Source: Nanobdellota archaeon | GTDB taxonomy: Archaea; Nanobdellota; Nanobdellia; Woesearchaeales; JACQSR01 | Reading direction: 5' to 3' | Length of the DNA: 53,269 bases | Assembly (NCBI GenBank): GCA_042577505.1 | Contig: JBHPEA010000003.1 | Location: 1-53,269 of the forward strand | In this document: one piece after another, positions 39,977 to 53,269 of the stretch | How the letters are laid out: every line of letters begins with the position of its first letter | Position numbering within the stretch: the stretch's first letter is position 1 | The notes under the pieces: generated by a model | What the model was told of the DNA's origin: nothing | What the model saw: only the letters and a program-made list of their open reading frames with translations | Database searches by the model: none | Made by a program: the position numbers and the translations under genes

Positions 39977-40059
39977 GATGTTAGATCAAGAAAAAATCAG
40001 TTTAAATACTTTTCTTTTTATACAAAAATCTTTATATAATGTTATACCTTCATGATAAT

Positions 40060-40722
40060 ATGAATCCAAACGACGTAAAAGATAAAATCCCTAAAAAGAT
40101 GTTCCCTATTCTCGACTCTGAGATCAAAGAGTTTCGACCCGCACAACAGAAATCAATTGAAAATGGACTATTAGACGGAAAGAATATCCTTGTATGCACC
40201 CCTACTGCATCTGGGAAAACCCTAATTGCTGAACTTGGTGCATATAAATCAATATTAGATAAAAGTAACAAAACTATCTATATTGTACCTTTAAAGGCAT
40301 TAGCATCCGAAAAACACAAAGAATTTACAAAGAAATATGGGGATGTATCTAAAATTGCATTATCTATTGGAGATAAGGATTCTTCTGATACATATCTGAA
40401 TGATTATGATCTAATTATAACAACATCAGAAAAACTAGATAGTCTTATAAGGCACCATGCTCCATGGATAAATTCAGTAGGATGTATTATTATAGACGAA
40501 ATCCACCTGCTCAATGATCCCTCAAGAGGACCAACTTTAGAAATAATTATTACTATTCTAAGAAAATTGATACCAAATGCTCAGATAATTGGACTTTCTG
40601 CAACTATTGGTAATCCAGAAGAACTTGCTGAATGGCTTAATGCAACTCTAATCAAAGATGACTGGAGACCAGTAAAGTTAGAAAAAGGGATTTATTTTGA
40701 AAACCAAATAGAATTCGATTAA
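40060..40722 (+). CDS. Hel308/Ski2-like helicase, first RecA-like domain only
   Basis: Q motif FRPAQ, PTASGKT, VPLKALA, TSEK, DEIH, SAT, WRPV, then stop. No motifs IV-VI. TATA at 40031-40038 favours ATG 40060. Confidence 0.82.
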   Translation: MNPNDVKDKIPKKMFPILDSEIKEFRPAQQKSIENGLLDGKNILVCTPTASGKTLIAELGAYKSILDKSNKTIYIVPLKALASEKHKEFTKKYGDVSKIALSIGDKDSSDTYLNDYDLIITTSEKLDSLIRHHAPWINSVGCIIIDEIHLLNDPSRGPTLEIIITILRKLIPNAQIIGLSATIGNPEELAEWLNATLIKDDWRPVKLEKGIYFENQIEFD

Positions 40723-48859: not shown

Positions 48860-48863
<4 letters not shown>

Positions 48864-49330
48864 TCTTCTTCACATTCTTCAACTAACTCTTCTATATTAT
48901 CTTCAGAAACCGTAATAATTTCTTCTTCTTCCTCAGCTTCAGCTAACTCATAATTTTCTTCTTCTGAAAAAGAATATTCTAGTTCCTCTTCAGTAGGCAA
49001 TTCATAAATAGCAAATTCGTAATTTGGAGTATATTTTTCCTCATCCTCTTCACTCAAATAATCTTCTCCACCTCTTAAGGAAATACCAATTTCTTCTTGC
49101 AAATACTGCTCAAATAATGGCATAGTATTCAGTTCAGCATTAGGATCTAGAAATGCCCAAGGATCCTCAGGATCACTATCATCTATAAAATTTACTCCTT
49201 CAATAATATCTATCTTTTCTTCCAAAGAATTATTACCAAACGTTCTTAGAATTTTTGTTATGTCTTGTCTATTGGAGCTATATCTATCAGAAGGACTATT
49301 GTACTGTTCCACCCCAATTGTATCTTGCAT
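48860..49330 (-). CDS. Very acidic hypothetical protein
   Basis: Glu-rich C-terminal half; no signal peptide; no family recognised. Confidence 0.65.
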
Positions 49331-49451: not shown

Positions 49452-49652
49452 ATGGCAGGAGCAGAAACAGTAAATTGGATTTTTTTCATACTTCTCCCTT
49501 TAATTATTTGGGAAGCGGTATGGAAAGGAATTGCTCTTTGGAAATCTGGAAGGAATAAACAATTACCATGGTTCGTTTGTATTTTTATTTTCAACACGGT
49601 TGGAATATTACCAATAGTTTATCTTTTATTCTTTCAGAAAAAAAAGAGGTAA
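49452..49652 (+). CDS. Small 2-TM membrane protein (DUF5652-like)
   Basis: W..VWKGIALWKSGRNKQ..WF..FNTVGILPI.Y motif; TATA-like TTTAAATA upstream. Confidence 0.8.
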   Translation: MAGAETVNWIFFILLPLIIWEAVWKGIALWKSGRNKQLPWFVCIFIFNTVGILPIVYLLFFQKKKR

Positions 49653-49819: not shown

Positions 49820-49851
49820 CCAAATTATTTTCAATAAAAAGAGGTACAACA

Positions 49852-52800
49852 ATGGGAGCAAGACATACGACCGGGACTAAATTACTACTAATTCTGGTGA
49901 TGTCTTTCGTATTCGTTTTAACTCTTAGCGTCAGCTCTATCGCAACTTTGAATGTTTCACTTTCTGATCAAGGAACCGGTGTAAGAAATAAAACATCTGG
50001 ACAACTATTAGAAACTGGAAACATAACTATAGAAATATATGAAACACTTTCTGGTGGAAGTGCAATTTATTCTCAAACATTTGCTAATGGTATTGTGAAT
50101 GGTTCTTGGAATGTCATGTTGGGTGAAACAACCGGACTACCTCTTGAATATGGAAAAGTGTACTATCGTGCTTACGAAATAAATGGGGAAGCTGCTTCTT
50201 TTACAAATGGTACTGGTGGTACTGTTGGTAGACAATATTTCTACGCACCACTTGGTGATATAAATGGAACTAACATTATTGATGGAACAATTGATGGAAC
50301 CGAAATAACCGACAATTCCATTACTGGATCTGATATCAACAATCAAACAAACTTAACACTTGGAGAAAAAATCTCATTTACACTTGGAGGAATTGTAGAC
50401 AATATTCTTAATGGTTGGGTAGCAATCACAGGAAACGCTAGTGTTTCTGGTGACTTAAATGTTACAGGAGACATTAATGTTAACGGAAATATGAACTTCC
50501 AAAATATTTCTGGAAACGATGCAACTTTTACTACATTAACTGTTACTGGTACTTCTAACCTAAGTAATGTTATAATAAGTAACGTTGAAATTGATACAAA
50601 TAACATTAGTGTTAATGAAATATCTTCAAAGGGATCTGATTTAATTATATCAAACAATAATGCAGCAACTGATATAGCAACATTTACTGAAAGTGGAAGA
50701 GTTGGAATTGGAACTGATGCTCCCAATGGAACCCTTCATGTAATTGGAAATTCAATTTTAGTTGCAAACTTTACTAATCAGACAGGAAATTCAGTTATAG
50801 GAATTGGTGGAGCTGCAATTGCATATACACAAGGAGGTCTACAATTAACACCTTCATTAGGAGGTAATGGACTTTTCATTGAATCGGATGGAAACGTTTC
50901 TCTTGATGCAGCATTTGAAATGTTTGATACTAATGAAAATTACACACGGTTCATAACTGGGGTTCAAGACGGATCAATTGTATATACATTACCAATAACT
51001 GCGCCTACTGACGGTCAGGTTTTAGCAGCTAATTCATCTGGTGAAATGTTCTGGACTACAGACGATGAATCTGCATATTTAATAAATGGAACAGATGCAA
51101 ACTTCACAAATCTATGGGTAACTGGAACTTCTTATCTTAGCAATGTAACAGTTAATTCAGACAACATTACTGTCAATGAAATACATTCAAGAGATGGAAA
51201 TTTAACATTCTTTGATGCTGCTGGTTACGAACAGATGAGAGTAACTGATGACGGCAAAGTTGGAATTGGAACATCATCCCCTAATGGTTTACTGCATGTC
51301 TACGAAGATAGTAGCGCACGGGCAAATATTACAATGCAAAATCCAAATTCAAGCGGAGGCGCCATGTTAAATTTAGAAAGTGATACTGGAAGTGCATACC
51401 TAAGCATGGTTGGATCTAATTATCCTATGTCAATAGTTGCTAATCGAGGTCTACTTAATGTTGATAATGCTGCCGATGGATTAATTTTTCACCCAGGAAA
51501 TACTGGTAATATAATTTTCGCAACCGGTAACTTGTGGAATCAAAGTATGAATATTGAAAGTGACGGAAAAGTTGGTATTAACACTTCAACACCAAGCCAT
51601 ACATTAAATGTCAAAGGGGATGCTAACATTACTGGCAATCTTATTGTCGGTAATTCAGTGATCAGCGACCTTAACGTCACAGGAGATCTTCGAGTAGATG
51701 GTGTTTCATACCTAAGCAATGTAACAGTTAATTCAGATAACATTACTGTAAACAAAGTTATCTCAAGAGATGGTAACCTATCATTCTATGATAACGCTGG
51801 TACTGAAAACGTTAGATTTACAGAAGATGGTAGGGTCGGTATTGGTACAACAGCACCCGACGCCCATTTACATGTTCAGAAAAGTGCAGAAGAGGTTTTA
51901 GTTGCGATTAAAAACACACTCGATGGATTTACTTCATCTGCTTCATTAGATATCTACAATGCTGATGATGATTATGTGCGTCTTGGTATATTCTCACGGA
52001 ATAATTCAGATACTCCACCAATTTTTCAAAACAGATCAGTCTTAACTAGTAATGCGCCAAGTGGAATGATATTTGCTTCCAGGGGAGCATCACCAGATAT
52101 TGTATTCACACAAGGTACTTTCACTGAAAGAATGAGAATTGATAGCAATGGTCAATTAGGAATAGGGACCGCATCCCCTACTGAACTATTAGATGTAAAT
52201 GGTAGTGTTAATGTATCAGGAACCCTCTACGCAAACAACGTAAGTTCCAATTCACCATTAAGATTACAGACTGGTGGAACTACAAGATTATTCATTAACG
52301 ATACAGGACGCATTGCAATTGGAAAAGAAATTACATCCGAATTCATTGATATACAAGGAACCACTAACGATCCAAATGATGATCAGTTAACTATGAAATT
52401 ATTCAATACAAATTCATCAGGAATCGCATTGTACAGAGCAACTGCTGGTCAAGATTATGGGGTTGTTTTTGCCCATGCTGGAGCGGATTATGGATTTGGA
52501 TCTTTCGCAAACAAAGGTATGGTAATGAGTGAAAGATTAAGTGAGGGCTTATTATTAACTGCTGATAACGGAACTATAACATTTATGGCAGGAGATACTG
52601 GTACGTATCCAGAGAGGGCATTCATTGCAAAAACCGGTCAATTTGGTATCAACACAACCTCTCCAACCCACACACTTCACGTCAATGGTTCTGCAAACAT
52701 TTCTGGAACATTGTACACAGGCACTACTGTATCAAGTGGTTTAACTGTTGAAGGAGACTTAAACGTAACTGGGGTTTCATACCTAAGCAACGTTACAGTT

Positions 52801-53269
52801 AATGCTGATAACATCACTGTAAATGAAGTTCATTCTAGAGACGGTAACTTATCATTCTATGATAACCAAGGTAACCTAACAATTCACATAAACGAAACAA
52901 AGGGATCCGTTGGAATCGGTGCTCCATCTGTTAGATACCCACTTGAAGTTATTGGTGATGTAAATGATAATCACTTCCTAGCAATCAGAAACGCAAACAA
53001 TGGAGCTAGCGCAACATCAATGGTTGAAACCTCATTAGATAGTGGAATAGCTAATTTCGGTATAGCGTCAGAAAGTTTTGCTGCACCATTAATGCAAAAT
53101 AGAGGAATAATTTATGCACATTCTGGTGCGAATGGTATATCGCTTATTGCAGACAATGTTAGTGCAGATATTAAGTTTGCTACCGGTGGACAAAATGAAA
53201 GGATGGTAATTGATTCTGATGGAAATATTGGAATTAACAATAGTGATCCACAGAAACTATTATCTATTT
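49852..53269 (+). CDS. Giant secreted tail-fibre-like repeat protein (3'-partial, >1139 aa)
   Basis: My translation from ATG 49852 (SD GAGGT) stays open to the window end. Signal peptide MGARHTTGTKLLLILVMSFVFVLTLSVSSIA; nine G-x-[VILF]-[GA]-I-[GN] repeats; many N-x-S/T sequons. Not in the ORF track because it has no stop in the window. Confidence 0.9.
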   Translation, partial: MGARHTTGTKLLLILVMSFVFVLTLSVSSIATLNVSLSDQGTGVRNKTSGQLLETGNITIEIYETLSGGSAIYSQTFANGIVNGSWNVMLGETTGLPLEYGKVYYRAYEINGEAASFTNGTGGTVGRQYFYAPLGDINGTNIIDGTIDGTEITDNSITGSDINNQTNLTLGEKISFTLGGIVDNILNGWVAITGNASVSGDLNVTGDINVNGNMNFQNISGNDATFTTLTVTGTSNLSNVIISNVEIDTNNISVNEISSKGSDLIISNNNAATDIATFTESGRVGIGTDAPNGTLHVIGNSILVANFTNQTGNSVIGIGGAAIAYTQGGLQLTPSLGGNGLFIESDGNVSLDAAFEMFDTNENYTRFITGVQDGSIVYTLPITAPTDGQVLAANSSGEMFWTTDDESAYLINGTDANFTNLWVTGTSYLSNVTVNSDNITVNEIHSRDGNLTFFDAAGYEQMRVTDDGKVGIGTSSPNGLLHVYEDSSARANITMQNPNSSGGAMLNLESDTGSAYLSMVGSNYPMSIVANRGLLNVDNAADGLIFHPGNTGNIIFATGNLWNQSMNIESDGKVGINTSTPSHTLNVKGDANITGNLIVGNSVISDLNVTGDLRVDGVSYLSNVTVNSDNITVNKVISRDGNLSFYDNAGTENVRFTEDGRVGIGTTAPDAHLHVQKSAEEVLVAIKNTLDGFTSSASLDIYNADDDYVRLGIFSRNNSDTPPIFQNRSVLTSNAPSGMIFASRGASPDIVFTQGTFTERMRIDSNGQLGIGTASPTELLDVNGSVNVSGTLYANNVSSNSPLRLQTGGTTRLFINDTGRIAIGKEITSEFIDIQGTTNDPNDDQLTMKLFNTNSSGIALYRATAGQDYGVVFAHAGADYGFGSFANKGMVMSERLSEGLLLTADNGTITFMAGDTGTYPERAFIAKTGQFGINTTSPTHTLHVNGSANISGTLYTGTTVSSGLTVEGDLNVTGVSYLSNVTVNADNITVNEVHSRDGNLSFYDNQGNLTIHINETKGSVGIGAPSVRYPLEVIGDVNDNHFLAIRNANNGASATSMVETSLDSGIANFGIASESFAAPLMQNRGIIYAHSGANGISLIADNVSADIKFATGGQNERMVIDSDGNIGINNSDPQKLLSI
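51130..52866 (+). repeat. Three dispersed ~90-bp intragenic repeats encoding SYLSNVTVN[SA]DNITVN..[HI]SRDGNL[ST]F[FY]D
   Basis: Copies start at 51130, 51706 and 52777; a degenerate fourth copy lies near 50550. Confidence 0.85.

Follow-up and report, generated by a model that had tools for sequence, protein, structure and literature searches.

The stretch of DNA considered here (the window, 53,269 nucleotides) is the entire contig C3 (JBHPEA010000003.1) of a 1.28-Mb, 59-contig genome of a Nanobdellota archaeon (GCA_042577505.1), which is 86.67% complete with 0.28% contamination. Judged by its genes, the host is a Woesearchaeota-type DPANN archaeon; the nearest named relatives of its FtsY are Woesearchaeota and Nanoarchaeia records, with a top match at 67% identity. 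The window carries genes for EF-2, EF-1alpha, S10, IleRS, the proteasome, carAB, pyrBI, prefoldin, FtsY, prs, purA and purF, but no tRNA gene, and it ends in a long reading frame (49852..53268, + strand) that starts with ATG and runs for 1139 codons without a stop before the window end. We will argue that this frame represents the first (5') third of a single chromosomal gene in this DPANN archaeon, and that the product is, on balance, a secreted fibre of about 3,000 residues that is probably trimeric, probably N-glycosylated and probably adhesive. Little is known of the ways in which DPANN archaea locate partner cells and stay attached to them. Electron cryotomography has revealed nanotubes and tail-fibre-like 'antennae' on the host cell, and the accessible text of that study gives no molecular identity for a fibre on the symbiont side (PMC11329633). 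Our literature search found no description of such fibres in DPANN or Woesearchaeota; database annotation already names some relatives of the protein 'tail fiber domain-containing protein'.

The start codon of the fibre gene lies six bases downstream of a Shine-Dalgarno-like GAGGT (49841..49845, +), read directly from the sequence. The first 31 residues (49852..49944, +) form a leader with a basic n-region, a hydrophobic core of 15-20 residues, small residues and a predicted cut between SIA and T. This leader and cut-site pattern is kept in nine relatives, as judged by inspection, and it agrees with the Sec-type signal proposed in a first-pass annotation made from the letters alone. The protein would be exported through Sec and its leader cleaved. 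The codon usage of the gene is native, the G+C content at third codon positions being 0.22-0.27 against 0.245 +/- 0.032 for the open reading frames (ORFs) of the genome, and its slightly raised overall GC content fits the Gly-rich composition of the protein. A recent import was considered on compositional grounds, and no sign of it was seen.

The gene continues beyond the window. Contig C53 (3837 bases) is open in one frame over its whole length (1278 aa), with neither start nor stop, and contig C30 opens in the same kind of frame, which adds 629 aa before a stop. The overlap between C3 and C53 is exactly 55 bases at their ends, that between C53 and C30 exactly 55 bases at their beginnings, and these 55-base words occur nowhere else in the genome. 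Exact overlaps of this length are the signature of a k=55 assembly graph that breaks at an internal repeat. Here, the last 55 bases of C3 (53215..53269, +), identical to the last 55 of C53, put the break point inside the ninth junction motif of the fibre. At the contig junctions the upstream side ends with a single base beyond its last complete codon and the downstream side begins with two bases ahead of its first one, so that the frame is kept across both junctions if the ends abut. Synteny supports the join independently of the overlaps. In two congeners (G003 and G002, same genus) a small acidic ORF sits directly between purF and guaA, the gaps being 82 and 67 bp. In the present genome the housekeeping genes of C3 end with purF and the acidic ORF, and guaA is found 8.2 kb into C30. 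Within the genome, the hidden Markov models (HMMs) that we built of the fibre modules match only the C3, C53 and C30 pieces. The simplest path, C3-C53-C30, is the most likely one and would give a protein of at least 3046 aa, or of 3048 aa if the absent connecting node adds nothing. The first-pass annotation had described more than 1139 codons open to the window end; the stop-free frame of 1139 codons bears this out, with the adjustment that the window is a whole contig and that the gene goes on over C53 and C30. An ORF list that discards frames open at the contig end would miss it.

The protein is built on a repeated motif of the GxVGIGTxxP type. All nine copies that the first-pass annotation had listed can be located in the frame, at aa 282, 468, 572, 660, 767, 819, 929, 1018 and 1124, and in most cases an ERMRI-like strand does come before the motif and LHV or LDV after it, as it had stated. 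Over the three gene pieces the motif matches amount to 27 (9 + 13 + 5). When all six-frame segments of the genome above 150 aa are considered, two or more matches occur only in the fibre frame, in its two continuations and in one unrelated frame on C35 that has 2, and this clustering in a few frames means that the motifs are not due to chance. The sequence between the motifs had been described as variable inserts of about 80-100 aa; we find instead three recurring module types, each opening at a motif: one of about 105 aa, a stalk of about 90 aa and a stalk of about 52 aa. Modules of the longest type end in ERMRIxSD and number 15 in total (4, 7 and 4 on the C3, C53 and C30 pieces), and they are 20-33% identical to the first of them. 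An exact 24-base linker at the junctions was looked for and not seen, as no word of at least 21 bases is present three times or more.

The part of the fibre encoded in the window can be followed from the cell-proximal end outwards. The leader is followed by an all-beta, immunoglobulin (Ig)/FN3-like domain (aa 32-140; 49945..50271, +), predicted by AlphaFold2 with a per-residue confidence (pLDDT) of 87-95 over model residues 11-100. Then comes a sequon-rich proximal shaft (aa 141-281; 50272..50694, +), with a weak match to the stalk-module HMM (E 0.0027) and a low monomer pLDDT. Next, aa 282-467 (50695..51252, +) comprise the first GRVGIGT junction, an atypical module with a single YTLP...GQVL...W and a stalk core (E 4.8e-21). 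From there on the two kinds of modules alternate, all on the + strand: 105-aa beta-helix-type module 1 (aa 468-571; 51253..51564; module HMM E 2.4e-30), a stalk module (aa 572-659; 51565..51828; E 3.2e-43) of which nearly all residues lie in the predicted trimer interface, 105-aa module 2 (aa 660-766; 51829..52149; E 2.1e-31), which was included in the trimer prediction, the short 52-aa stalk module (aa 767-818; 52150..52305; E 9.6e-35), 105-aa module 3 (aa 819-928; 52306..52635; E 3.3e-26), another stalk module (aa 929-1017; 52636..52902; E 7.7e-46) and 105-aa module 4 (aa 1018-1123; 52903..53220; E 1.1e-33). A further motif reported in the first-pass annotation, YTLPITAPTDGQVL...SGEMFW, is present once, at aa 378-401; it is not a feature of the family, being found in 3 of 263 fetched proteins.

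The gene shows no sign of decay. One duplicated pair of modules is identical at 101 of 106 residues and 88.7% identical in DNA, with a ratio of nonsynonymous to synonymous substitution rates (dN/dS) of 0.033, and four other pairs have dN/dS values of 0.14-0.41 (six pairs were compared, and one that was out of register, with 3 of 52 residues identical, was excluded). These low values indicate that the gene is under purifying selection. On C30 the stop comes about 35 residues past the last motif, after a short tail with two cysteines. It had been suggested that an extension of the contig might reveal a C-terminal Peptidase_S74 domain or a membrane anchor, and the C-terminus on C30 carries neither; PF13884 (Peptidase_S74) has no match on the three pieces at E 0.1 nor in the whole genome at E 0.01, in searches where the controls matched. 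The count of paralogues, another check proposed at that stage, is none in the genome by the module profile. The findings that had been named as arguing against a cell-encoded fibre (downstream capsid or terminase genes, a nearby stop or frameshift, a monomeric S-layer-like fold) were not encountered either.

The homology of the shaft is to tail fibres and to the mosaic adhesive trimer (MAT) proteins of Bdellovibrio, the two relationships foreseen in the first-pass annotation. Pfam and NCBIfam give no meaningful family for the fibre, Pfam having no model for the shaft. PHROG 18345 and 9942, both annotated 'tail fiber protein', match all three pieces with E-values from 1e-28 to 8.3e-63. Among the PDB entries, the only sequence matches at E <0.001 are Bdellovibrio MAT fibres (8ond at 4.3e-8, 8oml and 8ojn). 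In particular, positions 1-105 of the 107 in the 105-aa module profile align to residues 22-133 of 8OND, with the loops at both ends (E 4.2e-10), and this region is the first beta-helix domain of Bd2133. The profile of a stalk plus a module reaches E 1.9e-19 against 8OND, followed by 8oml, 8ojn and 8ol4. Two rows of the family searches, Sep15_SelM and an rRNA-maturation family, were discarded, as they are below the cut-off and match the low-complexity stalk.

As the shaft modules are homologous to the trimeric shafts of MATs and phages, an intertwined homotrimer is the most likely form of the fibre, and structure prediction is consistent with this. One stalk-plus-module unit predicted in three copies reached a score of 0.94 in all 3 runs, with 957-972 contacts, a partner pLDDT of 93-94 and at least 97% contact agreement between the runs; none of the 3 controls scored above 0.00. 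In the calibration of this score, the mark was reached by 20 of 30 proteins whose solved form is a pair of one chain and by 1 of 23 whose solved form is a single chain. The trimeric fibre of the first-pass annotation thus receives support from prediction.

The module family is very large. The module profile retrieves 28,256 representative clusters at E <=0.001, 4,831 at 1e-10 and 143 at 1e-30, and the best of these are very large proteins (2000-7600 aa) in which 20-47 stretches match. The named relatives are 'tail fiber domain-containing' proteins (Nanoarchaeota, Pacebacteria) and hypothetical proteins (Woesearchaeota, Margulisiibacteriota), and Peptidase_S74 is found in 27 of the 117 non-self relatives listed. 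Annotated phage relatives, from cyanophages, pelagiphages and Thermus phages, are found in 33 of 50,697 phage records, at 24-29% identity.

The Ig-like domain that follows the leader has a different distribution from the shaft. Its fold retrieves only generic Ig/FN3 beta-sandwiches, in a flat list with a best Z of 6.7; Foldseek gives nothing at E 0.001 or better, and the matches in a protein atlas score at most 0.85 and are leads only. The domain occurs right after the leader in nine other fetched proteins that differ in their later parts. Its carriers include a 3102-aa fibre, a protein named pectin-methylesterase-like by its source and a protein with dockerin and EF-hand domains (precomputed domains). 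A scan of a named genome collection with one narrow peptide pattern confirmed 22 loci, all archaeal by record title and mostly DPANN: 8 Woesearchaeota, 3 Pacearchaeota, 3 Nanoarchaeota/Nanoarchaeia, 4 unclassified archaea, 3 labelled Methanosarcinales and 1 Altiarchaeota. The true range may be wider, since a single narrow pattern was used. As read, the carriers span 98-3102 aa, have 0-26 fibre motifs, and ten of them are cut by contig ends. When the N-terminal region was searched among longer proteins it gave a single match, and of the 142 proteins initially retrieved from the representative clusters two (P0123 and P0202) have the domain. We take this domain to be the cell-proximal base of the fibre. 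In several of its carriers (P0007 and the C-terminal ends at L029, L032, L034 and L043) the protein ends in a short motif similar to C...G.I[FY][FY]...C.C...W, which may be a recurrent small tip domain; the two-Cys tail of the present fibre is shorter.

The closest characterised system is that of the MATs. As described in the accessible text of Caulton et al. 2024 (PMC10769870), these proteins begin with a signal peptide, and the next 130 aa or so form an invariant, beta-rich domain presumed to lie at the cell surface. The shaft is trimeric over its whole length, with capping loops, the tips are swappable, and the 21 MATs of Bdellovibrio bacteriovorus comprise 13 with S74 and 8 without it (NS74). 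The fibre resembles the non-S74 members (Bd2133, 8OND) in the succession of a leader, a beta-rich domain and a beta-helix shaft with GxVGxGTxxPxxxL capping loops. It also shares with MATs the direct sequence homology to 8OND given above, the predicted trimer and the lack of S74 (as in the 8 NS74 MATs), and its relatives are mosaic, the same base being joined to different C-terminal parts. The base of about 110 aa parallels the MAT domain of about 130 aa by its position after the leader and its beta-rich fold, not by sequence comparison. There are also differences: the host is an archaeon without an outer membrane, the base domain is seen only in archaeal records, the fibre is about 3 times longer, sequon-dense and finished by a tiny tail instead of a folded tip domain, and it is a single copy where B. 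bacteriovorus has 21 MATs. Predation is not supported by the evidence here.

With phage tail fibres (PHROG 18345 and 9942; S-TIM5/S-TIM54, S-CBP1, pelagiphages, Thermus YS40 and phiFa) the fibre shares the shaft modules and the junction motif, and S74-type fibres such as T5 pb1 and the K1F endosialidase are named alongside MATs in the accessible text of PMC10769870. Unlike them, it is encoded in a non-viral genome, with a leader, a cellular base domain and no S74, and at the low identity already mentioned. The 'tail fiber domain-containing' proteins of Nanoarchaeota, Woesearchaeota, the Candidate Phyla Radiation (CPR) and Margulisiibacteriota, together with the metagenomic giants of 20-47 modules, belong to the same module family; the fibre differs from many of these DPANN, CPR and metagenomic entries by having no S74 end and by its base, which is rare among them. 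The nanohaloarchaeal 'SPEARE' proteins are reportedly also very large secreted proteins of small-genome archaea, with a proposed role in host contact; their domain content appears to differ from that of the fibre. Overall, a set of modules of the MAT/tail-fibre kind is combined here with an archaeal base domain, and the gene is located in a swappable island. That the fibre is an archaeal non-S74 variant of this kind, with an archaeal base domain and in an accessory island, is well supported by the sequence comparisons.

The island itself is delimited by the purine genes. The roughly 16 kb between the acidic ORF and guaA hold a DUF5652 gene, the fibre gene, a gene for a 735-aa LamG protein and one for a 1243-aa Cys-rich protein, and this island is absent from the purF/guaA site in 3 of 3 congeners. 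In two of these the junction is empty (G002 and G003; L052 and L053), and in the third (G001; L051, C16 14455-18184) it contains four other genes, of 375, 404, 277 and 195 aa, so the junction may be a recurrent insertion site. Within the 520-bp stretch before the fibre gene, at 49452-49649 (+), the DUF5652 gene (E 4.3e-28) encodes a 65-aa two-helix membrane protein. No second copy exists in the genome, and the purF loci of the congeners lack the gene, which is therefore probably part of the island. As a conserved membrane partner of the fibre it was rejected, since none of the 22 related loci and none of the 3 congener loci contain it. After the fibre stop, C30 1910-4114 (L010) encodes the 735-aa protein, which is leader-bearing, sequon-rich and has two Laminin_G_3 (LamG) domains (E 1.6e-30), and C30 4380-8108 encodes the 1243-aa protein, also leader-bearing, sequon-rich and Cys-rich, without a clear family. 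The acidic ORF between purF and the island (48860-49330, - strand; 156 aa) has no Pfam family, but a 37.5%-identical homologue stands at the same place in G003, so that the ORF is probably genuine and conserved.

The first-pass annotation had also described the gene as cell-encoded with no phage genes adjacent, and the surroundings agree. All 46 scanned ORFs of the window are non-viral, falling in housekeeping families or in no family, and no match to Phage_capsid, Terminase_6N or Phage_sheath_1 was found in the 86.67%-complete genome, the sheath being the sole family of extracellular contractile injection systems (eCIS) or tailocins that was searched. On this sequence evidence the gene is chromosomal and not proviral. 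A diversity-generating retroelement was also looked for and set aside, as no reverse transcriptase match is present in the genome.

The fibre is rich in N-x-S/T sequons. The first-pass annotation had estimated more than 40, and the 1139-aa frame contains 52, against 23.5 +/- 4.0 (maximum 37) in 500 shuffles of the same protein. This makes 4.57 sequons per 100 aa, where the median over 941 crude ORFs of the genome (150 aa or longer) is 0.40. An STT3/AglB gene is found on contig C22 (170 bits). N-glycosylation of the fibre by AglB, which the first-pass annotation had inferred, is plausible in view of this roughly twofold excess and of the enzyme. Giant ORFs with 5-7.5 sequons per 100 aa are numerous elsewhere in the genome (on C14, C29, C15, C34, C5, C45, C46, C50 and others), the longest having 5709 and 5659 aa. 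None of them has fibre modules, and much of this small genome seems to be devoted to glycosylated surface proteins.

From these elements a mode of action can be proposed, in which we infer export, glycosylation, surface display, length and adhesion from the sequence. The Sec-type leader would direct export and then be cleaved, and the Ig-like base would be held at the envelope by a partner. The long shaft would consist of some 15 beta-helix-type modules of about 105 aa alternating with stalk modules of about 90 and 52 aa, and AglB would N-glycosylate it. As a trimer, it would project roughly 0.1-0.2 micrometres from the cell, a length extrapolated from the dimensions in the accessible text of PMC10769870 (Bd2133 measures about 142-150 A over 370 residues, and the model of full-length Bd3182 about 550 A). 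The fibre would then adhere to other cells or surfaces and, as the tip is minimal, binding may occur along the sides of the divergent modules.

Several other explanations have to be weighed against this one. The gene could be shorter, with C3 joining C30 directly to give about 1769 aa, and C53 being a co-assembled strain variant or a second locus. The assembly graph does allow this path through the same 55-mers, and C53 has no unique flanking sequence; but since C53 has neither start nor stop and runs into one and the same repeat node on either side, it must lie inside a gene of the fibre kind, and the genome has no second N-terminal or C-terminal piece to go with it and very little contamination. 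We therefore hold the shorter gene to be unlikely. The strong PHROG matches, the phage records in which relatives are annotated as tail fibres and the position in an accessory island could also suggest that the protein serves as tail fibre to a provirus encoded in or near the locus, or to a tailocin, eCIS or other phage-tail-like particle encoded there, and archaeal eCIS with diverse tail fibres have been reported, as far as the accessible text goes (PMC12923769). This is nevertheless highly improbable, given that the capsid, terminase and sheath families were not found across the 86.67%-complete genome, that the other island genes include LamG and Cys-rich surface proteins with purine genes on the flanks, that the protein has a Sec-type leader and a base domain in common with non-fibre DPANN surface proteins, that codon usage is native and that the phage relatives are so distant. 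Finally, a real trimeric surface fibre need not be an adhesin for partner cells, and could instead serve as a structural or protective coat (glycocalyx, spacer) or as a decoy for viruses. The minimal tail without a recognisable binding domain and the sporadic distribution are in line with this, and the many giant sequon-rich secreted ORFs, up to 5709 aa, suggest a dense glycoprotein coat. We still find it rather unlikely, because every characterised relative (MATs and phage tail fibres) is a binding device in the accessible text of PMC10769870, and because modules that are highly divergent and nonetheless under purifying selection fit specific surfaces better than bulk filler.

Some observations also weigh against the long adhesive trimer that we favor. 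C3, C53 and C30 are not physically joined, the short connecting node being absent from the genome, and C53 could be a strain variant or be traversed more than once. The pass in the trimer prediction may reflect memorised fibre structures, and its three copies and 7-row alignment differ from the calibration. When module 2 is folded by itself (pLDDT 77.6), MAT chains take the first five places among the PDB rows, though not at E 0.001 and with an rmsd of about 12 A, and against a viral library it has no match at E 0.001 or better, uncultured-phage proteins reaching 3e-3 at best. The C-terminal tail of about 35 residues has no obvious receptor-binding tip like those of MATs, and no membrane anchor was found at either end of the fibre beyond the leader. 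The module profile, which gives nothing in the 3 congeners (84-91% complete), matches in 5 of 200 further genomes drawn from the order and in 4 of 152 high-quality ones (G000 being in the tally); these counts are lower bounds, as repeats are often unassembled, but such sporadic occurrence means that the fibre is not a general DPANN attachment device. Lastly, the genome encodes much of purine and pyrimidine synthesis, so that an obligate host-attached life is not established.

The adhesive fibre remains the reading that we retain, and it makes the gene a concrete, testable candidate, whose parts can be expressed separately with the solved bacterial homologue as a guide for the constructs. An archaeal base joined to fibre modules in a swappable island is the pattern expected of a determinant of partner range. 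A bolder extension, which we hold to be unlikely as a whole, would make the base a DPANN-wide docking module for interchangeable passengers (fibres, beta-helix enzyme-like proteins and dockerin-bearing ones), the fibre a 'fishing line' of 0.1-0.2 micrometres whose some 15 divergent modules, maintained by selection, offer distinct lateral glycan-binding faces, and the purF/guaA junction a hot spot at which partner-range determinants are swapped.

Elsewhere in the window, the ORF at 40039-40722 (+; 227 aa), in which no C-terminal helicase domain was found, holds only the DEAD/ResIII half of a helicase and may be split or truncated.

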